Positions 2-11,431 of a stretch of DNA of 64,000 nt are shown here, one piece after another. The stretch is from Nitrospirota bacterium (GTDB lineage: Bacteria > Nitrospirota > Thermodesulfovibrionia > UBA6902). How positions within the stretch are numbered: position 1 is the first letter of the stretch; every line of letters starts with the position of its first letter. The notes beneath the pieces were generated by a model. It searched no databases, had not been told where the DNA came from, and worked only from the letters and a program-made list of their open reading frames with translations. Made by a program: the position numbers and the translations under genes. The stretch spans positions 35,337 through 99,336 of the forward strand of contig JACRLN010000024.1 of assembly GCA_016215115.1 (NCBI GenBank). The letters run 5' to 3'.

Positions 2-295
2 ATCGGCAGGGCCGAAGTGAGAAACCTGTTCCATATATCCAGGCTCGGAACGGTTGCCGGCTGTTATGTGCTAGACGGGAAAATTACAAGAGCAAATTCA
101 AGCGTAAGGATCATAAGAGACAATGTCGTTGTTTATGAGAGCAAACTATCATCGTTAAAGAGATTCAAAGAAGATGCAAGAGAAGTGCAGGCGGGATTTG
201 AATGCGGCATAATGGTTGAAAACTTCAATGACCTAAAGGTCGGCGATATAATTGAAAATTATGTCAAAGAAGAAGTCGCCGCCAAGTTTGAATAA
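2..295 (+). CDS. infB: translation initiation factor IF-2, C-terminal fragment (5' end outside window)
   Basis: Open frame from the window edge; translated peptide matches the conserved IF-2 C-terminal domain ([27 protein letters not shown] ... GFECGI ... DLKVGDIIE). Followed by DUF503 as in the nusA-infB-rbfA operon. Confidence 0.85.
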
Positions 296-709: not shown

Positions 710-831
710 TGTGGAATAGAGTTAACGCATTGATACATACAAGACATCCTCTTGCGAGGCAAAGAAATATCTTAAGGATAGGTTTATTGGGAAGGCTTGA
801 CATTGGAAGACAAGAGTAGTATATTGGTAGT

Positions 832-1062
832 ATGAAAGTTAAGACATCTATAACTCTTTCAGAAGACCTGATTCACAGCATTGATGAGAAAGTTGGTAAG
901 CAGAAAAACTTATCGGAGTTTATTGAGAAGGCAGTATGGGATTTCATTGAAAGACAGGAACGAAAGAAAAGAGACCTGAAAGACCTTAAGATACTCAATA
1001 AAAAGGCTGAGAAACTTAACAGAGAAGCAGAAGATGTTCTGTCTTATCAGGCTGATTTATGA
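832..1062 (+). CDS. ribbon-helix-helix (CopG/MazE-like) antitoxin
   Basis: 76 aa. N-terminal beta-strand/RHH-like start ([19 protein letters not shown]) and a charged C-terminus. Its stop overlaps the start of the downstream MazF-like gene by 4 bp (ATGA). Confidence 0.55.
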
Positions 1063-1385
1063 GACGAGGCGAGCTTTATCGCGTGCATAAGGGAACGCCT
1101 CATGATCCTAAAAAGTTTCGTGTATTTGTCATAGTAAGCCGCCAGGTGCTTATTGATTCAAGGCTCTCAACAGTAATCTGTGCGCCGATTTATTCAAGTC
1201 ATGACGGCTTATCTACTCAGGTAAAAGTCGGTATTGAAGAAGGTCTGAAACACGACAGCAGTATCCACTGTGATGAACTTGTCAGCATCCCAAAGTCATT
1301 ATTAACCTATTATGTAAGTTCTCTTTCTCCTGAAAAAATGCAGGAACTGAATGACGCATTGGGAGTTGCGTTAGGTTTACATTAG
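1059..1385 (+). CDS. mazF: MazF/PemK-family mRNA interferase toxin
   Basis: 108 aa with PemK/MazF hallmarks (GELYRV ... PHDPKKxRxFVIVS ... [10 protein letters not shown] ... CDELVSIPK). Translationally coupled to the upstream RHH gene. Confidence 0.65.
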
Positions 1386-1895
1386 GCAGCACACCCACGC
1401 CCACTCAAACAGCGTAATTCCAGTGTAACAGGCAATAGTCCAGTAAACATTGCCTATAATCAAGCTGCCCGTGAATATCTTCCAGTCTCTTCCACTCATG
1501 CCGTTGAATTTGCCGTGGCGCATATAGGCAGTGGTAATGAACGGGTCGAATTTTATAGATAAAAACAGGAACACTACCGGAACGCTCTTTTTCATGATCC
1601 ACGTAGTCAACCGCCCTATTCTTTTGCCGCCCTCATATCCTTTGATTCCTTTTATCGCCTCAATGCCGAGCCAATCCTTTTTTGACCAGTCGTAGAATTT
1701 CATAGACAGGATACAGACTATAAATGAAAGAACTGTCATCACAATGCCGCCCTTGAGAATGCCGAATTTATAAATGATATAAGGATAAAGAACGTAACTG
1801 AAAGCGCCTCCCATCAGACCAAGAGCGGTTATGCCGATAGTTAATTCAGACATTCTGCCTTTATAGGTCAGGACTTTTTCGATAAACTTGTTCAT
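1377..1895 (-). CDS. hypothetical multi-pass membrane protein
   Basis: 172 aa with 4-5 predicted hydrophobic helices and no recognisable motif. Confidence 0.4.
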
Positions 1896-1938
1896 GCTAT
1901 TACCCTCTGAAAGAGGGATGAAAGGAGATTTTACAGAA

Positions 1939-3273
1939 TTATTTCAATCTATTAATCCGCTGCAAACATTTGTTCACTTCTTCCTCCAGATGCACTGGAT
2001 AACACCGCCAGTATTTATCAGCAGCTTTATCCGAAGGCAGTAATTGTACTACTAATGGTTTAACGCCAAAATGCTTTATTACCTGTTCATAGGCAGGCAT
2101 AACAACTGTGTTTAAAAATATTTCTTCTTCTTTTGACGTGACAAAGTTCTCAAAAAGGACTCCGTGACATATAAAGAGGGAAAGAAAATATTTATAGTAT
2201 TCTTTTGCCTTTTTACCGTGTGTTTTATACCATGATGAAGCATCATATATATCAATAGTCGGCAACCCCGATTTTAATAACCTGTGATGAAAGTCAACAA
2301 GATTCTCACCAAAGATCGTCTTAATTTCGTTTAACATTTTCTTTTCAGCCGTCATAAGGTCGATGATTTTTCGGTAGTGAAATATCATATGCTCTTTTCC
2401 ATTTCTTCTATCAAGAAAAGGCATCTTTCCCAGAGCGACCTTGTCTGCATTTCTTGTACAAAACTTATCCTCTAAATATTCCCAACCAAGTGGTTTGAGA
2501 TTTGTCTTGTTAGCTAACCCCTGAAAATGCATATTTTCAATATTAGATGTCATTATATGTCTAAACAGGACAGCTCTTGGTTCTTTTTTCAATGCTTCAG
2601 GTATTTCACCTAAATAATCCAAAACCTTCTTACTGAGTGATACATTATTCCAACGTTTCCAAACTTCTACTTTTGCTTCTTCAAGAGATGTATATATGCC
2701 CATTATCTCTTTATGCTGAGAATTCTGTTTATTCGTTGCCGGGTTGTAATATATCGCTTCAATATAATCCGCCGGTTCTTCATGATTGTAATAACGCCAC
2801 CTTTCAACCCTTCTAATCTGAGTAAACAGATATTCTTTATTAAAAACTTTTTGAATCACCTTACTTAATCCATTACTGACTCTTGCATGCATTGAAAACT
2901 TGTTAACTCCAAATCGTTTCTCCGCTTCATCCCTCATTTTATAAAGCATTCTGGAAAAACCACTTCCTTTTTGAAATTCAGGAAGTATTACCAAAGTTTC
3001 AACATAATATCTTCCGGAATCTTCTTTCATCTCAGGATCATCTTCCCCTATTTCGCAAAAAGCTTCATTATGAGGGATTGCGAGGAGATAGCCCGCTGTC
3101 TTTCCATTATCCTGCAGAAGAATATTTATGTTCTTATCTTTTTCAAGCATACTGCCGTAATATTCCTTTTCATCGTCATATGTCCAGCCATTAGGGAATG
3201 CCTTGCCCCTGACAAGTATAATCTCTCTCAGCGCCTTCTCATCAAAGCAATTTAGAACTTCAACTGTAAGCAT
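1939..3273 (-). CDS. GNAT N-acetyltransferase domain fused to a C-terminal domain of about 290 aa of unknown function
   Basis: 444 aa. The N-terminal 150 aa have a GNAT motif A (LPEFQKGSGFSRMLY). The C-terminal part has no motif I can assign. Divergently transcribed from the XRE regulator. Confidence 0.6.
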   Translation of the reverse strand: MLTVEVLNCFDEKALREIILVRGKAFPNGWTYDDEKEYYGSMLEKDKNINILLQDNGKTAGYLLAIPHNEAFCEIGEDDPEMKEDSGRYYVETLVILPEFQKGSGFSRMLYKMRDEAEKRFGVNKFSMHARVSNGLSKVIQKVFNKEYLFTQIRRVERWRYYNHEEPADYIEAIYYNPATNKQNSQHKEIMGIYTSLEEAKVEVWKRWNNVSLSKKVLDYLGEIPEALKKEPRAVLFRHIMTSNIENMHFQGLANKTNLKPLGWEYLEDKFCTRNADKVALGKMPFLDRRNGKEHMIFHYRKIIDLMTAEKKMLNEIKTIFGENLVDFHHRLLKSGLPTIDIYDASSWYKTHGKKAKEYYKYFLSLFICHGVLFENFVTSKEEEIFLNTVVMPAYEQVIKHFGVKPLVVQLLPSDKAADKYWRCYPVHLEEEVNKCLQRINRLK

Positions 3274-3478
3274 AGTTTTAGCGTTTATACCAGTAAAGAG
3301 ACTTTTTATTAATTATTGTGATGGGAGCTATTGTTCTAATAGATATAATTTAAGCTCGATAATAGCCCTAATGAATACAATTCTATCCCCAATAAGAACT
3401 TATTGTCAATAAAATAGTTCTTACTAAGCCGTTCATATTTTGTTTCTTTAAAGGGTATTTTTGAAAGGAGAAATAAAT

Positions 3479-3796
3479 ATGAACGAAAAGAAATTAATAG
3501 GACGACGGATTAAAGAGTTAAGGAGAAGTAAAGAATTATCTCAGGAGAAGCTCGCAGAATTGGCAGAAACAAGCCCTAATTATCTAAGCCGTATGGAGCG
3601 AGGCACGGAAAACCCCACGCTTGACATGCTCATAAAACTCTCCAATGCCCTTGAAGTGGAAATGTGGGAGATATTTGACTTCGGTCATGTCACAGAGCGC
3701 AAGGCTCTGAAAGAGTCCCTCCAAGCATTCCTCAAAACCGCAGACGAACCTACCCTCCGCCTCGCCCTGAAAATCATCAGAGCAGTTGCGAGATAG
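3479..3796 (+). CDS. XRE-family helix-turn-helix transcriptional regulator
   Basis: HTH_XRE signature (LIGRRIKELRRSKELSQEKLAELAETSPNYLSRMERG). AAGGAG ribosome-binding site upstream of the ATG at 3479; the ORF track began at an upstream TTG at 3461. Confidence 0.7.
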   Translation: MNEKKLIGRRIKELRRSKELSQEKLAELAETSPNYLSRMERGTENPTLDMLIKLSNALEVEMWEIFDFGHVTERKALKESLQAFLKTADEPTLRLALKIIRAVAR

Positions 3797-3860
3797 AATA
3801 GTTTTAGTCTTCTGCTCATTCGATTTAATAAATATGCTACAATTAAACAACTGGAGGTGT

Positions 3861-4106
3861 ATGATGCCGACAACAAAAAAGACATTTTATCGAGAACCTA
3901 ATGATACATATTTCAGAGAGCATTTATCTGAATTTGTTAAAGAACACGGCGGCGACTATGTTGTCATTGCAGGCGGACAATTAATAGGATTTGCCCGTAA
4001 GGATAACATCTCCTCACTTATGAAGAAAGCACGGGAAATGTTCCCTGCCGATATACCAATGTTATCTCCCATACCACGAGAGGAAGAATTAGAGTGCATT
4101 CTCTAA
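3861..4106 (+). CDS. small hypothetical protein, partner of the retropepsin-like gene
   Basis: GGAGGTG ribosome-binding site precedes the ATG at 3861 (MMPTTKK). About 81 aa. Its 3' end overlaps the next gene by 13 bp. Confidence 0.5.
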   Translation: MMPTTKKTFYREPNDTYFREHLSEFVKEHGGDYVVIAGGQLIGFARKDNISSLMKKAREMFPADIPMLSPIPREEELECIL

Positions 4107-4501
4107 TATTCCCCTACCAGTTAATAAATAAAAGGCATATTCCAGTAATCCCTTTAATTCTTCATGGTTCTCGAAATACAAAAATAAGAACAGAGGCATT
4201 TGTTGATTCCGGCGCAACATTCAGTATTTTTAATGTAGATATTGCAAAAAGTCTGATGCTCAATCTCAAAAATGCACGTGAACAGTTTTTCGTAGTCGGA
4301 GACGGCAGCTTCATACCTGCAAAGGTTATAAAAATACCGGTTGAGATAGGCAACGAAAAAATTATCTCAGATATTGCCTTTTCTGAAAAACTGAATATCG
4401 GCTTTAATTTGCTCGGCAGAAAAGGAATATTTGAATATTTTGATGAAATAGCTTTTAATGAAAAAGCAAAAGAAGTTATTTTTAGATGGAAAGCGAGATA
4501 G
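4094..4501 (+). CDS. retropepsin-like (clan AA) aspartic protease domain protein
   Basis: Contains the aspartyl-protease active-site signature FVDSGATFSIF (D-S/T-G-A) followed by the hydrophobic-Gly pattern. GTG start overlaps the upstream small gene. Confidence 0.6.
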   Translation: MHSLIFPYQLINKRHIPVIPLILHGSRNTKIRTEAFVDSGATFSIFNVDIAKSLMLNLKNAREQFFVVGDGSFIPAKVIKIPVEIGNEKIISDIAFSEKLNIGFNLLGRKGIFEYFDEIAFNEKAKEVIFRWKAR

Positions 4502-4507
4502 TAAACT

Positions 4508-4885
4508 ATGCACCCATATAAACGTTCAGCAAGGGTCGGTGATTTAATACGGGAAGAAATCGCTGACATTATATTGAATAAGATCAAACACAAAACACTC
4601 GGCTTCATTACAGTTACCGGAGCAAAGGTTAGCGATGACCTGAGAAATGCAACAGTATTCCTAAGCGTTCTTAATAGCGAAGACGCGGACAAGACAGTGC
4701 GGAAACTCACTGAATCATCGGCTTTTATCAGAGGCGAACTCGGCAGAAGGCTGAAGATGAAGTTCGTCCCGTCTCTTACTTTCAGGATTGACGAGTCAAT
4801 TCAATACGGGATGAAAATTGACAAATTACTCAATAACATTAAATCAGAAAGGAACGCACCTGACGAAGATGAAGATCTCTTCTAA
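4508..4885 (+). CDS. rbfA: ribosome-binding factor A
   Basis: 125 aa. RbfA-like sequence (RVGDLIREEIADII ... ITVTGAKVSDDLRNATVFLSV) in the conserved position after infB and before truB. Confidence 0.85.
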   Translation: MHPYKRSARVGDLIREEIADIILNKIKHKTLGFITVTGAKVSDDLRNATVFLSVLNSEDADKTVRKLTESSAFIRGELGRRLKMKFVPSLTFRIDESIQYGMKIDKLLNNIKSERNAPDEDEDLF

Positions 4886-5849
4886 ACTGCTCAATGTTAT
4901 CAGGCAGAATAAATCTTTTCTTATTGTGGGACATATTAATCCGGAAGGCGATGCAATCGGTTCAGTATTGGCGCTTGCGCTCGGATTGAAAAAGATGGGA
5001 AATAATAACACCTATCCCCTGAGCAAAGACGGCGTGCCTGAAATCCTGAAGTTCCTGCCCTCATCAAGAACAATAAAACAAACTCCCCCTAAAAAAGAAG
5101 TTGATGTCTTATGTATAGTAGACTGCAATACACTGGAACGAACCGGCTTTAAGGAATTAAAAGCGAAACACACCGTTATTATCGATCATCATATCCCGCC
5201 TGATGATGCGGATAAATCCGAACTGTACAGGAAATCGGCGGCAAGCGTCATTGATACCGGAGCCGCGGCAACAGGGATGCTCATTTATAAGCTTTTGTCT
5301 GCGCTCAAGATATCCATCGATAAAAACATTGCCACAAATTTATACACAGCATTACTTGTAGACACCGGAGGATTCAGATATTCCAACACCTCGCCTGAAG
5401 CCTTAAAGATTGCATGTCATCTCATTCAGGCCGGCGCAAGACCGTGGGATATAGCAAAAGAATTATACGAAAGCATCCCCTTCAAATCAATGAAGCTTTT
5501 AGGCCTTTCACTCGCTACCCTTGATAAAAAAGACGGCATAGCGTGGATTACCGCTGCTACGGACATGTTCAAAAAGACAGGCACAACCTACGAGGATTCT
5601 GAAGATTTTGTCGATTTTCCCAGAAAGGTCAAGGATATCGAGGTGGCTGTTTTTTTCAGGGAAGATGATAAAAATGTATTCAAGCTCAGCCTCCGTTCAA
5701 AAGGCAGGATTAATGTCGAAAAGATCGCAAAAAGTTTCGGAGGCGGCGGACATTTCGCAGCCGCAGGATGCAAGATAAAAGGGACTTTGCAGGAAGTACA
5801 GAAAAAGGTCTTTGCGGAAGTAAGGAAAGCTATAAAGGATGCGAAATGA
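4869..5849 (+). CDS. nrnA: DHH-family phosphoesterase NrnA (bifunctional oligoribonuclease / pAp phosphatase)
   Basis: DHH motifs (VGHINPEGDAIGS, IIDHH) and the DHHA1 GGGH motif. The ORF-track start at 4818 overlaps rbfA, so the internal ATG (MKISSKLL) is preferred. Confidence 0.75.
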   Translation: MKISSKLLNVIRQNKSFLIVGHINPEGDAIGSVLALALGLKKMGNNNTYPLSKDGVPEILKFLPSSRTIKQTPPKKEVDVLCIVDCNTLERTGFKELKAKHTVIIDHHIPPDDADKSELYRKSAASVIDTGAAATGMLIYKLLSALKISIDKNIATNLYTALLVDTGGFRYSNTSPEALKIACHLIQAGARPWDIAKELYESIPFKSMKLLGLSLATLDKKDGIAWITAATDMFKKTGTTYEDSEDFVDFPRKVKDIEVAVFFREDDKNVFKLSLRSKGRINVEKIAKSFGGGGHFAAAGCKIKGTLQEVQKKVFAEVRKAIKDAK

Positions 5850-6000
5850 ACTACTTAGTTGAAATCGGAGCTACAAGTTTGTCATTCCGTACTTGATGCG
5901 GAATTCAGTAGGGGCAATTCATGAATTGCCACTACATATTCTCTGGATTCCCGTTTACACAGGAATTACAGAAGAACTGGAATTACTTGTTTACAACCTC

Positions 6001-6903
6001 ATGGACCTTATAATCGCCCTTAACAAACCCAAAGATATCACATCTCAAGACGCTGTTACAAAAGTAAAAAAGATTTTAAAAATAAAAAAGGCCGGCCATA
6101 CCGGCACGCTTGACCCGATGGCAACAGGGCTTCTGCTTGTATGTATAAACAGGGCCACGCGGCTTGCTTCATATTTTTGCAACCTCGATAAAGAATACAG
6201 GGCTGTAATGAAACTCGGTGAGACAACTGATACGCAGGATGCTTACGGTAAAATTATTGCTAAGAGCGATAAAATTGAAATCGGCAACACCATAATAGAA
6301 GAGTGTTTAATATCATTTAAAGGCAACATATTACAGCAGCCACCTATGTTCTCTGCATTAAAACACGAAGGGCAGCCGCTCTACAAATTGGCAAGAAAAG
6401 GAATTGAAGTTGACAGGAAACCAAGAGAAGTAAGCATATATGATATTGATCTTATTAATATTAACTTTCCATATGTGACGTTCCGTGTTGTGTGTTCAAA
6501 AGGAACTTATATAAGAACACTATGCGATGATATAGGCAAAAAACTTGGTGTTGGCGCACACCTTTTTGAACTTGAGCGCACAGCAATAGGGTCCTTCAGA
6601 ATTGCAAACAGCTTAACTATTGAAGAATTAATAAGTTTAAATATAAATGAACCAGACGGAAAAGGTGTTTACACAATGGATAAGGCTTTATCATGGATGC
6701 CGGCATTTAAAATAGATGATGCAACAATAAAAGCTGTCAAGCATGGAAATCCGATCAGGATTCTAACTCTTTCTGATGATTACAAAAAAGCAGAAGGCAT
6801 AAGAATAAAATCACCTGATGATGAATTTCTTGCAGTCGGCAGTTTTTCCCCTGAGAGAAATACTATTAAAATGGATGTGGTATTTGCATGTGAAAAAAAC
6901 TAA
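6001..6903 (+). CDS. truB: tRNA pseudouridine(55) synthase
   Basis: TruB catalytic motif (GHTGTLDPMATGLLLVCI) and a PUA-like C-terminus. The start was chosen at an internal Met (MDLIIALNKP), and the upstream extension is uncertain. Confidence 0.8.
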   Translation: MDLIIALNKPKDITSQDAVTKVKKILKIKKAGHTGTLDPMATGLLLVCINRATRLASYFCNLDKEYRAVMKLGETTDTQDAYGKIIAKSDKIEIGNTIIEECLISFKGNILQQPPMFSALKHEGQPLYKLARKGIEVDRKPREVSIYDIDLININFPYVTFRVVCSKGTYIRTLCDDIGKKLGVGAHLFELERTAIGSFRIANSLTIEELISLNINEPDGKGVYTMDKALSWMPAFKIDDATIKAVKHGNPIRILTLSDDYKKAEGIRIKSPDDEFLAVGSFSPERNTIKMDVVFACEKN

Positions 6904-9342: not shown

Positions 9343-9918
9343 ATGGCAAAAACAATTGAGATTCGCTGGCACGGCCGCGGTGGTCAGGGAACGGTTACTG
9401 CTGCAAAGGTTCTGGCTGACGCCTGTCTGAGCGGCGGGAGATATGTTCAGGCGTTCCCTGAATACGGACCTGAGAGGGCGGGCGCTCCGATCAGGGCCTT
9501 TAACAGGGTTAGTGAACATGTAATAAGAATGTATGGTCCTGTTCTCCATCCGAAGGTGGTAAGCATCGCGGATGCCACACTGATGGATGCGATAAATGTT
9601 ACTGAAGGGGCCCCGGACGATGCGATATTTATTGTAAACACATCAAAAGACCCTAAAGAGGTAAGAGAGAAGCTGGGCGCCAGGGATACCCAGAAAGTAT
9701 TCACAGTCAACGCTTCGAAAATTGCTGTAGAGTGTTTTGGAAAACCGCTCCCGAATTCCTCGATGCTGGGAGCGATCATTAAGGTGACCGGGATTGTTGA
9801 AATGGATGCGCTTCTGGAGAACGTCAAGAAGAGCTTTGGCAAGAAGTTTGCCCAGAAGATCATTGACGGAAACCTCGACGCCACAAAACGCGGATATGAG
9901 GAGGTAAAAGAAGGATGA
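9343..9918 (+). CDS. porG: 2-oxoacid (pyruvate):ferredoxin oxidoreductase, gamma subunit
   Basis: 191 aa. The gamma-subunit P-loop-like motif (IRWHGRGGQGTVTAAKVLA). First gene of a gamma-delta-alpha-beta cluster. Confidence 0.85.
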   Translation: MAKTIEIRWHGRGGQGTVTAAKVLADACLSGGRYVQAFPEYGPERAGAPIRAFNRVSEHVIRMYGPVLHPKVVSIADATLMDAINVTEGAPDDAIFIVNTSKDPKEVREKLGARDTQKVFTVNASKIAVECFGKPLPNSSMLGAIIKVTGIVEMDALLENVKKSFGKKFAQKIIDGNLDATKRGYEEVKEG

Positions 9919-10211
9919 GTAAGAAATTTTGGGAAACACTTCCACAGGGCTCTGTTGTACTGGAGGCCGGAAGTTCAGCTAAATTCAAGACAGGCACATG
10001 GAGGTCGGTGAGACCGAAGTGGATAGAAGAAAACTGTATACAATGTTTATTCTGCTGGATGTATTGCCCTGACATGTCGGTCAAGGTAAATGCGGAAGGT
10101 AAACGAGAAGATTTTAATTACGATTACTGCAAGGGCTGCGGGATCTGTGCCCTCGAATGCCCCGGTAAAAAGGGCAAGAAAGCAATAGTAATGGAAGAGG
10201 AGGGGAAATAA
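9915..10211 (+). CDS. porD: 2-oxoacid:ferredoxin oxidoreductase, delta subunit (2x[4Fe-4S] ferredoxin)
   Basis: Two Cys clusters, CIQCLFCWMYCPD and CKGCGICALECP. Confidence 0.85.
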   Translation: MSKKFWETLPQGSVVLEAGSSAKFKTGTWRSVRPKWIEENCIQCLFCWMYCPDMSVKVNAEGKREDFNYDYCKGCGICALECPGKKGKKAIVMEEEGK

Positions 10212-11390
10212 ATGGGTAAGATTGTTGCAGTTACAGGAAATGAAGCATGCGCACAGGCCCTGAAGCAGATCAACCCTGATGTATGCGCCGCATACCCTAT
10301 CACACCGGCAACTGACCTAATGCAGAGGTTTTCCGGCTTTGTCTCGGACGGCAAAGTGGACACAGAGCTGGTGCTTGTAGAGAGTGAGCATAGTGCGATG
10401 AGCGCCTGCATAGGCGCCGCGGCAGCAGGCGGACGGGTTGCCACAGCAACTTCATCACAGGGTCTGGCCCTGATGTGGGAGATGCTTTATATAGCAGCAG
10501 GGACAAGACTTCCTATAATCATGCCTTTGGTGAACAGGGCCCTTTCAGCTCCCCTGAATATTCATGGCGACCATTCCGATGGTATGGGCGCGAGGGACAC
10601 GGGCTGGATCCAACTCTATTCCGAGAATGCCCAGGAGGCATATGACAACACAATCCAGGCCTTCAGGATTGCGGAGCACCTGGACATCAGACTGCCTGCA
10701 ATGGTCTGCATGGATGGTTTCATAGTCAGTCACTCTATCGAGAGGGTCGAATATATTGATGATGCGGATGTAAAAAACTTTGTGGGAAAATTCCAGGCGG
10801 TACATCCGCTGCTTGATCTGGACAACCCCAAAAGCTACGGTCCTCTGATCCTGACCGACCTGTATCATGAGTACAAGAGGGCCCAGCATGAAGTCATGAC
10901 GAAGGTCCCGAAGGTTGTGCTGGAAGTAGCGTCTGATTTTGAAAAAATGACCGGCAGAAAGTACGGTCTCTTTGAAACATACAGACTTGAAGATGCAGAA
11001 ATAGCAGTCGTAGTCATGAGCTCGGCAGCAGGTACCACCAAAGACATAATCGACCAGTACAGAGACAAAGGCGTCAAAGCCGGCCTCCTGAAGCCCAGGA
11101 TGTTCAGGCCTTTCCCGTATCTGGAAATAGCCGACGCCCTTAAGCATCTGAAGGCGATAGCTGTTCTGGACAGGGCTGATTCCTTTGGCGGCTACGGACC
11201 ATTGTTCATGGAAATCTCAAGCGCGGTTATGTCCATGGATACAAAACCTGCCATGATAAACAAAATCTTCGGTCTTGGTGGAAGAGACTACCTCCCTGAC
11301 CAGGCAGAGCAGGTGCTTGATGAACTGGTAAAGGTAGCTAAAACCGGAAAAGTCCAAACCGTAAAAGAGTATATCGGAGTAAGAGAATAA
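10212..11390 (+). CDS. porA: 2-oxoacid:ferredoxin oxidoreductase, alpha subunit
   Basis: 392 aa. Pyruvate-flavodoxin/ferredoxin oxidoreductase domain I-like sequence, immediately downstream of the delta subunit. Confidence 0.85.
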   Translation: MGKIVAVTGNEACAQALKQINPDVCAAYPITPATDLMQRFSGFVSDGKVDTELVLVESEHSAMSACIGAAAAGGRVATATSSQGLALMWEMLYIAAGTRLPIIMPLVNRALSAPLNIHGDHSDGMGARDTGWIQLYSENAQEAYDNTIQAFRIAEHLDIRLPAMVCMDGFIVSHSIERVEYIDDADVKNFVGKFQAVHPLLDLDNPKSYGPLILTDLYHEYKRAQHEVMTKVPKVVLEVASDFEKMTGRKYGLFETYRLEDAEIAVVVMSSAAGTTKDIIDQYRDKGVKAGLLKPRMFRPFPYLEIADALKHLKAIAVLDRADSFGGYGPLFMEISSAVMSMDTKPAMINKIFGLGGRDYLPDQAEQVLDELVKVAKTGKVQTVKEYIGVRE

Positions 11391-11431
11391 AGCTGACAGC
11401 TGTTTGCTGATAGCTTATAGGAGAGATAAAA

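Follow-up and report, generated by a model that had tools for sequence, protein, structure and literature searches.

A seven-gene islet between DUF503 and rbfA in a Nitrospirota bacterium, probably built piecemeal from three small mobile cassettes

We analysed a 64,000-nucleotide stretch of DNA from a Nitrospirota bacterium of the Thermodesulfovibrionia lineage (GenBank assembly GCA_016215115.1, contig JACRLN010000024.1, positions 35,337 to 99,336), called the window below, and in it an islet of seven genes that separates DUF503 from rbfA within the infB-DUF503-rbfA-truB cluster. The islet was taken as positions 710-4507, from the DUF503 stop codon to the rbfA start codon, and coordinates are those of the whole window unless another locus is named. 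Genes were assigned from a listing of open reading frames (ORFs) and from Pfam and NCBIfam family scans of the window proteins. Reading rightwards, they encode a ribbon-helix-helix (RHH) protein and a MazF/PemK toxin; on the opposite strand, a 172-residue hydrophobic protein and a 444-residue enzyme; then an XRE helix-turn-helix (HTH) regulator, and finally a DUF5678-like and a retropepsin-like protein. A sequence-only reading of the same DNA had listed these genes, on both strands, and had noticed no integrase or transposase. Both observations held: all the listed genes are present, and the scans detected no integrase, transposase or relaxase among the seven proteins, nor any integrase or recombinase in the flanking genes. 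Rfam and tRNA scans revealed no feature in or adjoining the islet, the nearest tRNA being at 12.5 kb, so that the islet is not tRNA-targeted. No paralogue of an islet gene was found elsewhere in the 64 kb.

The window genes were compared by tblastn (E<1e-4) with 86 related loci, six of them obtained by an NrnA-based scan of species-representative genomes, all metagenome-assembled genomes (MAGs) of Thermodesulfovibrionia or Nitrospirota, and 80 by a DUF503-based metagenome scan. None of the 86 contained a homologue of any of the seven islet genes. DUF503 and rbfA are 3-274 bp apart in 71 of the 73 related loci that have both, versus 3,798 bp in the window, in line with the earlier statement that DUF503 normally lies directly upstream of rbfA. 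In the alignments, similarity to the relatives breaks at the DUF503 stop codon and picks up at the rbfA start codon. By neighbour joining on RbfA plus NrnA, locus L010 is the sister of the window (100% bootstrap); L004, L005 and L013 join these two next (99% bootstrap), with L008, L009, L007 and L006 as their outgroups in a clade supported at 87%. The islet is missing from the sister locus and from the three that join next, where the spacers measure 107 bp (L010), 91 bp (L004), 105 bp (L005) and 18 bp (L013), that of L010 being unrelated to those of L004 and L005. Its gene order is therefore not conserved across the lineage, the outcome that would have spoken for an ancestral arrangement, and we conclude that the islet is strain-specific and accessory. 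The L010 spacer (L010 4283-4392) was seen to contain repeated AAGGGG-like units.

Other relatives carry different cargo at the same point. The L007 interval, of 1,412 bp, holds a HEPN gene (3.5e-19) and two further ORFs; that of L015, of 1,468 bp, codes for one protein with SEC-C and Xre_MbcA_ParS_C domains. At L011, where DUF503 is 99% identical to that of the window, a CHAT-domain gene (1.9e-39) directly follows it, and a pair made of a DUF3368 (PIN-like) and a UPF0175 gene occupies the interval of L012. Given these HEPN, CHAT, PIN-like/UPF0175 and SEC-C genes, the DUF503-rbfA spacer in this Thermodesulfovibrionia clade is a hot spot at which genes are gained and lost. At L008, a 2,980-bp contig, ORF inspection showed P-II-like and glutaminyl-cyclase-like genes (1-1481) ahead of rbfA in the place of DUF503, so that the cluster is broken there at the same point. 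The two additional L007 ORFs, on the minus strand, were considered as methyltransferase fragments, an assignment that Pfam did not confirm and that we dropped.

As the source is a MAG, and as small repeated toxin-antitoxin genes can cause misassembly, the junctions might have come from an assembly or binning step that joined unrelated contigs. A Logan contig of 5,547 bp, however, runs from DUF503 through the seven genes to rbfA and nrnA with 100% identity, and two further Logan assemblies cover DUF503 to the XRE gene with junctions 100% identical, which makes three separate assemblies in all. The protease is also matched at 100% identity in an NCBI Nitrospirae MAG, where its contig measures up to 114,771 bp. 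With such agreement a chimera is unlikely, and we give an artefact next to no credence. The G+C content of the islet is 37.8%, compared to 42.7%, and is the lowest of all 3.8-kb windows in the 64 kb, so that a deviation in composition, one of the checks proposed with the sequence-only reading, was indeed found. G+C at third codon positions (GC3) ranges from 0.28 (protease gene) through 0.33 (enzyme) and 0.51 (XRE) to 0.54 (membrane protein), the background being 0.44 +/- 0.06; by tetranucleotide distance, the islet is only in the top 9%. The uneven GC3 and the low G+C are consistent with a mosaic origin. Elsewhere in the window, at 9400-11400, G+C climbs to 0.48-0.54, against about 0.42 for the whole.

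Table 1. Genes, control elements and cassettes at the DUF503-rbfA locus (positions in the window; aa, amino acids; nt, nucleotides)
Feature	Position	Strand	Remarks
infB 3' end	17-295	+	assignment of the sequence-only reading; 77-89% identity to the gene preceding DUF503 in relatives
DUF503 (ylxP-like), left conserved flank	392/428-709	+	Pfam DUF503 E 2e-31; 86-99% identical to relatives; mechanical ORF starts at TTG 392, relatives use the ATG at 428
Left junction, 61 nt	710-770	.	no counterpart in any relative or in other cassette 1 copies
Cassette 1	771-1385	+	RHH and MazF/PemK genes with their own promoter-like site
RHH protein, 76 aa	832-1062	+	RHH_1 20.1 bits, gathering score 20.5
MazF/PemK toxin	1059-1385	+	PF02452 E 2.7e-14, 53.7 bits, cutoff 23.1
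Cassette 2	1395-3795		XRE (+) facing the enzyme/membrane-protein operon (-)
172-aa hydrophobic protein	1377-1895	-	no family match
444-aa protein	1939-3273	-	weak N-terminal GNAT match
Divergent control region of cassette 2	3274-3478	.	
XRE HTH regulator, 105 aa	3479-3796	+	Pfam HTH_3 1.9e-15; mechanical ORF starts at TTG 3461
Promoter-like element, extended -10, then GGAGG	3797-3863	+	predicted from sequence
Cassette 3	~3829/3864-4487 (genes to 4501)	+	DUF5678-like and retropepsin-like protease genes, 13-nt overlap
DUF5678-like protein, 80 aa	3864-4106	+	below threshold
Retropepsin-like protein, 135 aa	4094-4501	+	below threshold; D-S-G-A motif
rbfA, right conserved flank	4508-4885	+	Pfam RBFA 8.5e-32
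NrnA-like DHH phosphoesterase	4818-5849	+	DHH and DHHA1 domains
truB	5893-6903	+	73-80% identity to the gene following nrnA in relatives

The islet was next compared by blastn with the loci fetched for homologues of its genes, and the borders of the blocks were drawn from these comparisons. Cassette 1 is 85-86% nucleotide-identical, over 586-618 nt, to RHH-MazF pairs at two unrelated loci, L099 and L100, whose neighbouring genes resemble neither each other's nor those of the window. It has at least 7,999 homologues, many of them 75-97% identical, spread over Nitrospirae, Nitrospinae and Chloroflexota. Cassette 3 is 77-86% nucleotide-identical to pairs at the unrelated loci L094, L095 and L096. 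The first of these (L094 3771-4414) lies beside a PIN gene, about 1 kb upstream of Cas6 and of a gene for an RT-Cas1 fusion (RT, reverse transcriptase), in a CRISPR locus; the second follows class-I tRNA-synthetase and nucleotidyltransferase genes and precedes a MOSC gene; the third is placed between a PIN gene and the HPPK gene. A more distant pair, 53% identical, is found within a type I restriction-modification locus, between hsdS and hsdR (L101 2765-3399). The overlapping two-gene architecture was kept in all five contexts examined. Counterparts of cassette 2 were detected in L090, L091 and L093, where XRE faces a gene set made of an AdoMet_dc-like gene, a homologue of the C-terminal half of the enzyme and a membrane-protein gene. 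Identity to the window reaches 74% for XRE and 65% for this C-terminal half (both in L093), and the 172-residue protein is 58-65% identical to the product of the gene that follows the enzyme homologue in the three loci. No AdoMet_dc gene was found in cassette 2 of the window or elsewhere in the 64 kb.

The islet is made of three cassettes set end to end, and not of one element, each of them recurring alone, its architecture kept, at unrelated sites. We consider that it grew piece by piece, as three small cassettes, each mobile on its own, accumulated in the DUF503-rbfA hot spot, and we estimate the probability of this reading at about 80%. The earlier proposal of an inserted accessory island is then right as to its accessory nature, absent as it is from all the loci compared, and has to be given up as to its unity, three independent cassettes and a probably older XRE layer (see below) taking the place of a single island. 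The pieces would have been joined by illegitimate or flank-mediated recombination rather than by an integrase.

The joints themselves were inspected. The last codons of the membrane-protein gene (1377-1394) lie outside the sequence shared with other copies, which begins at 1395, and run antisense over the 3' end of MazF. In the protease gene, likewise, similarity to other copies ends at about 4487, which leaves its final codons outside the shared sequence. Such joints within gene ends look like illegitimate joints between cassettes. The direct repeats that had been suggested as a check at the boundaries were not found: apart from chance-level matches of 13-21 nt, neither direct nor inverted repeats flank the islet. 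A single integrative element inserted in this intergenic site by site-specific recombination, or left there as the remnant of one or of a prophage, would account for the low G+C, for the precise replacement of the spacer, and for the copies of the XRE 3' end that flank cassettes in L093 and are repeated three times in L090, in the manner of an attachment-site duplication. It would nevertheless have done so with no integrase, transposase or relaxase in 710-4507, no flanking repeats and a single XRE-end copy in 64 kb, and its three parts are found separately elsewhere. Moreover, neither the enzyme alignment nor the XRE-end DNA motif matched anything in IMG/VR, and the PLSDB plasmids gave no match for the enzyme or the protease. 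We hold a single element to be very unlikely.

The copies of the XRE 3' end at other loci deserve attention of their own. On the minus strand of L090, three 5'-truncated XRE 3' ends are arranged in tandem (2761-2922, 3593-3685 and 4142-4231), one after a gene for a 74-residue protein, one after an AF2212-like/PIN pair and the third directly after the locus's own, different XRE. In L093, a 132-nt copy (9762-9893) is 89% identical to the end of the resident XRE (4119-4250), about 5.5 kb away, the pair forming direct repeats that bracket the enzyme operon. An XRE-end fragment is also found beside the RHH-MazF pair of L099 (4526-4621), and some of the copies have in-frame stops. These copies resemble an attachment-site duplication; they may mark a recombination site, or be remnants of serial gene replacement. 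One could go further and suppose that small toxin-antitoxin-like cassettes recombine in and out at the XRE 3' end, with no recombinase gene in cis; the XRE scars of L007 and L009 described below would then be empty attachment sites rather than remains of a deletion. In the window, an nhmmer profile of this sequence found just the gene's own end in the 64 kb, and no second copy on the left, where the idea would place a repeat. With a single copy, the attachment-site idea finds no support at this locus, and as no recombinase was seen either, we regard exchange at the XRE end as improbable. Were it true, it would represent an undescribed cassette-exchange system.

The spacers of the relatives were then searched for remains of the islet. 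Those of L009 and L007 retain the final part of XRE (window 3730-3796), ~65 nt of it in L009 and ~40 nt in L007, with an in-frame stop in L009. In both, the remnant is followed by the promoter-like element that also follows XRE in the window, and L006 has the element alone. In the window it has an extended -10 sequence, TGcTACAAT (3835-3843), and is followed by GGAGG (3853-3857); the 18-mer AATATGCTACAATTAAAC (3831-3848) is identical in L007 and has 2 differences in L006 and in L009. In these three relatives the element lies ~80-95 nt upstream of rbfA and is followed by a leader and a GAGG/GGAG site. Short-word blastn and tblastx detected the XRE end and the promoter element in the relatives' spacers, and no other trace of the islet. 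The XRE-end/promoter segment folds as RNA no more stably than its shuffles (z -1.25).

Since L006, L007 and L009 are outgroups to the group of the window, L010 and L004, the simplest account is that XRE and the promoter were already present in the ancestor of the clade. Cassette 2, or at least XRE with the promoter that follows it, is probably the oldest layer; it would have eroded in L006, L007 and L009, and disappeared cleanly from L010 and from the group of L004. Cassettes 1 and 3, of which the relatives show no trace, look like later additions. The scars therefore speak for a history of gain and erosion at this site, rather than for one insertion.

The same scars can be turned into an argument that the whole seven-gene arrangement is ancestral, the window having kept the original state and the relatives having lost it by deletion. 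The XRE scar of L007 and L009 and the promoter-like element of L006, L007 and L009 stand at the same position before rbfA, in loci that branch outside the window/L010/L004 group, and the element is like that upstream of DUF5678 in other copies of cassette 3. The 86 loci, though, contain no trace of cassette 1, of cassette 3 or of the enzyme and membrane-protein genes, and the closest group alone would require two or more clean losses. Copies of cassettes 1 and 3 at unrelated loci are also 85-86% nucleotide-identical to them, a similarity that the core flanks of most relatives do not exceed, and the GC3 of the islet genes is uneven. An ancestral islet is in our opinion unlikely, while keeping a small share of the probability.

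Several points weigh against piecemeal assembly as we describe it, or loosen it. The scars may also mean that more of the islet than XRE and its promoter is ancestral, and was deleted elsewhere. The promoter element resembles the extended -10 found upstream of DUF5678 in L095 and L096; we assigned it to the locus and not to cassette 3 because of its identity with L007 and of the shared sequence upstream. The RHH, DUF5678 and retropepsin assignments all score under the Pfam thresholds. Concerning known anti-phage systems, PADLOC returned generic HTH matches for XRE and chance-level ones (E 0.004-0.005) for the RHH protein and the protease. Finally, the flanks of the nearest relatives are 87-96% nucleotide-identical to those of the window, which makes them roughly genus-level relatives and not strains, and with no conspecific genome in the comparison the timing and order of the gains are loosely bounded.

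The position of cassette 3 bears on the expression of rbfA. Similarity of the window to the relatives stops about 7 nt past the -10 box, and GGAGG and the DUF5678 start codon come next. At the other end, the protease stop codon (TAG, 4499-4501) is followed 6 nt on by the rbfA ATG, and the GGAG site and leader of the relatives are absent from the window. Cassette 3 would thus have landed between the rbfA promoter and rbfA, replacing the leader and the ribosome-binding site. Judging from this layout, DUF5678, protease, rbfA, nrnA and truB probably form one transcription unit, and translation of rbfA may be coupled to, or dependent on, that of the protease gene upstream. At the left end, transcription from infB and DUF503 would enter RHH-MazF and then meet the convergent enzyme operon. 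We also observed that the NrnA-like gene between rbfA and truB, as its ORF was called mechanically, overlaps the 3' end of rbfA, and that the order rbfA, nrnA-like, truB is kept in the relatives examined.

A functional tie between the islet and ribosome biogenesis would make the seven genes one coherent stress or defence system linked to RbfA, TruB and initiation factor IF2. The physical fusion to rbfA expression goes in this direction, and ribosomal RNA is among the known RNA targets of MazF toxins. Each cassette, on the other hand, recurs in contexts without rbfA and never with the other two, and relatives bear unrelated cargo at the same site; the GNAT fold similarity is generic and PADLOC matched no system. 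Beyond the fusion to rbfA expression, nothing links the cassettes functionally to the ribosome, and such a system appears to us highly improbable.

As to what the cassettes might do, cassette 1 has the sequence features of a MazF-type type II toxin-antitoxin pair, with a putative antitoxin whose RHH_1 score is just under the cutoff. Its promoter-like site (TTGACA at 797-802, 17 nt, then TATATT at 820-825) scored 11 of 12 in a promoter scan, and the toxin matched the PHROG family "MazF-like growth inhibitor" (3e-11). The RHH protein would repress and neutralise the MazF endoribonuclease, which is presumed to be toxic. As in MazEF/PemIK, a toxin of MazF/PemK fold follows a small gene, here for a putative DNA-binding antitoxin, with a 4-nt overlap and its own promoter, here a promoter-like one; the antitoxin, by contrast, would be of the RHH (CopG) type instead of the AbrB-type MazE.

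For cassette 3, an alignment of 36 homologues of the protease showed that D38, G40, A41, G108 and R109 are invariant, and S39 nearly so (S or T). Given this conserved D38-S/T-G-A and G108-R109, the protein is probably an active dimeric aspartic protease. Family scores were under the cutoffs: 21.1 versus 28.2 bits for gag-asp_proteas, 19.6 versus 24.3 for Asp_protease_2, and 20.3 versus 57.35 for TIGR03698. It resembles the clan AA proteases (NCBIfam TIGR03698, clan_AA_DTGF) by its length of ~130 residues, by the invariant D-S/T-G-A motif and by a conserved retropepsin-type G-R motif, and differs from them in falling below the family thresholds and in being paired with an overlapping DUF5678-like gene upstream. 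The constant pairing, the scattered distribution, and neighbours of the PIN, HicB-like, restriction-modification and CRISPR kinds fit a toxin-antitoxin-like or defence module. We therefore propose the DUF5678/retropepsin pair as a candidate protease-based toxin-antitoxin, addiction or defence module; in the literature, we found no description of this pairing.

Cassette 2 does not look like a toxin-antitoxin system, and looks rather like an XRE-controlled enzyme with a membrane protein. In the enzyme, residues 1 to ~180 form a GNAT domain, with the GNAT fold and the acetyl-CoA-binding Q/R-x-x-G-x-G/A motif, and residues ~190-444 (window 1939-2706, minus strand) a domain which we call X250, having a Rossmann-like HUP fold of the class-I aminoacyl-tRNA-synthetase/nucleotidyltransferase type. 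The AlphaFold models are confident (predicted local distance difference test scores of 92.8 and 95.8), and the residues F-H-H at 328-330 are nearly invariant. X250 has no Pfam model, and a sequence-profile search of the PDB with the enzyme family returned nothing. The family comprises 965 cluster representatives, mostly stand-alone proteins of ~250 residues, the more distant members also standing alone in their genomes. Rare fusions add either an N-terminal GNAT or a C-terminal SET domain (P0393, P0400, P0465 and P0495 for SET); a fusion with the membrane protein, considered for the longer proteins, was ruled out, these being SET-domain fusions.

The second gene of the operon codes for the 172-residue protein, for which neither Pfam, NCBIfam, PADLOC nor PHROG gave a match; with several long hydrophobic stretches, it was judged by eye to be a putative membrane protein. 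In the control region, a minus-strand promoter-like site (TTGACA at 3409-3404, 18 nt, then TAGAAT at 3385-3380) is overlapped by an 8-nt inverted repeat, TAAGAACT/AGTTCTTA (3393-3423). A 20-nt imperfect palindrome occupies 3377-3418, and L093 has a 23-nt palindrome at the aligned position. The repeat and the palindrome are likely candidate operators for XRE, a repressor that would control the divergent operon of the GNAT/HUP-fold enzyme and the small membrane protein. The modelled folds suggest that the enzyme is acetyl-CoA-dependent and probably nucleotide-dependent, and that its substrate is an amine or an aminoacyl compound; the partners of X250, namely an acetyltransferase, a SET lysine methyltransferase and an AdoMet-decarboxylase-like gene, suggest that it may be an amine or lysine. 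Cassette 2 shares with the TacT/AtaT/KacT toxins the association, within a mobile cassette, of a GNAT domain and an adjacent small DNA-binding regulator. Those toxins, in contrast, are stand-alone GNAT proteins of ~160-180 residues co-transcribed with their antitoxin, whereas here the GNAT domain is part of a 444-residue HUP-fold fusion, XRE is divergent, a membrane-protein gene follows, most homologues have no GNAT domain, and several copies of this cassette type have an AdoMet_dc-like gene ahead. The description of the islet content as toxin-antitoxin- and defence-like is largely correct for toxin-antitoxin genes, and fails for cassette 2 and for defence in the sense of an anti-phage system recognised by PADLOC. 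PHROGs, for their part, matched MazF and XRE only.

Type II toxin-antitoxin systems cluster in small chromosomal spots of high turnover, where they then erode (Belot et al., Mol Biol Evol 2026, PMC13617665). The islet recalls the spots described in Photorhabdus (PMC13617665) in that small module clusters are found between core genes, patchily among relatives, that loss by deletion or pseudogenisation leaves remnants, and that the modules behave as autonomous selfish units. The Photorhabdus spots often come with transposases or integrases, unlike the islet, in which no recombinase is present; the islet moreover sits in the infB-DUF503-rbfA-truB cluster, and one of its cassettes appears to have taken the interval between the rbfA promoter and the gene. 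Core defence hotspots, in P. aeruginosa (PMC10250203) and in the E. coli pan-genome (PMC10121019), likewise show the same core flanks with cargo that differs by strain. The cargo at our site matches no catalogued anti-phage system, however, the spots are much smaller (0.1-3.8 kb), and the comparison was made here at about the genus level and not within a species. Genomic islands borne by an integrase are, like the islet, absent from relatives and deviant in G+C; integrase and border repeats are lacking here.

Taken as a whole, the islet is an ordinary small variable spot rich in toxin-antitoxin genes. It indicates that cargo of this kind is tolerated even in the strongly conserved infB-DUF503-rbfA-truB cluster, and that a selfish cassette can insert itself between a ribosome-biogenesis gene and its promoter, from where an imprecise loss of cassette 3 would probably be costly. 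Two leads come out of it, the DUF5678/retropepsin pair and the X250 family, the latter pointing to an amine- or lysine-modifying activity.

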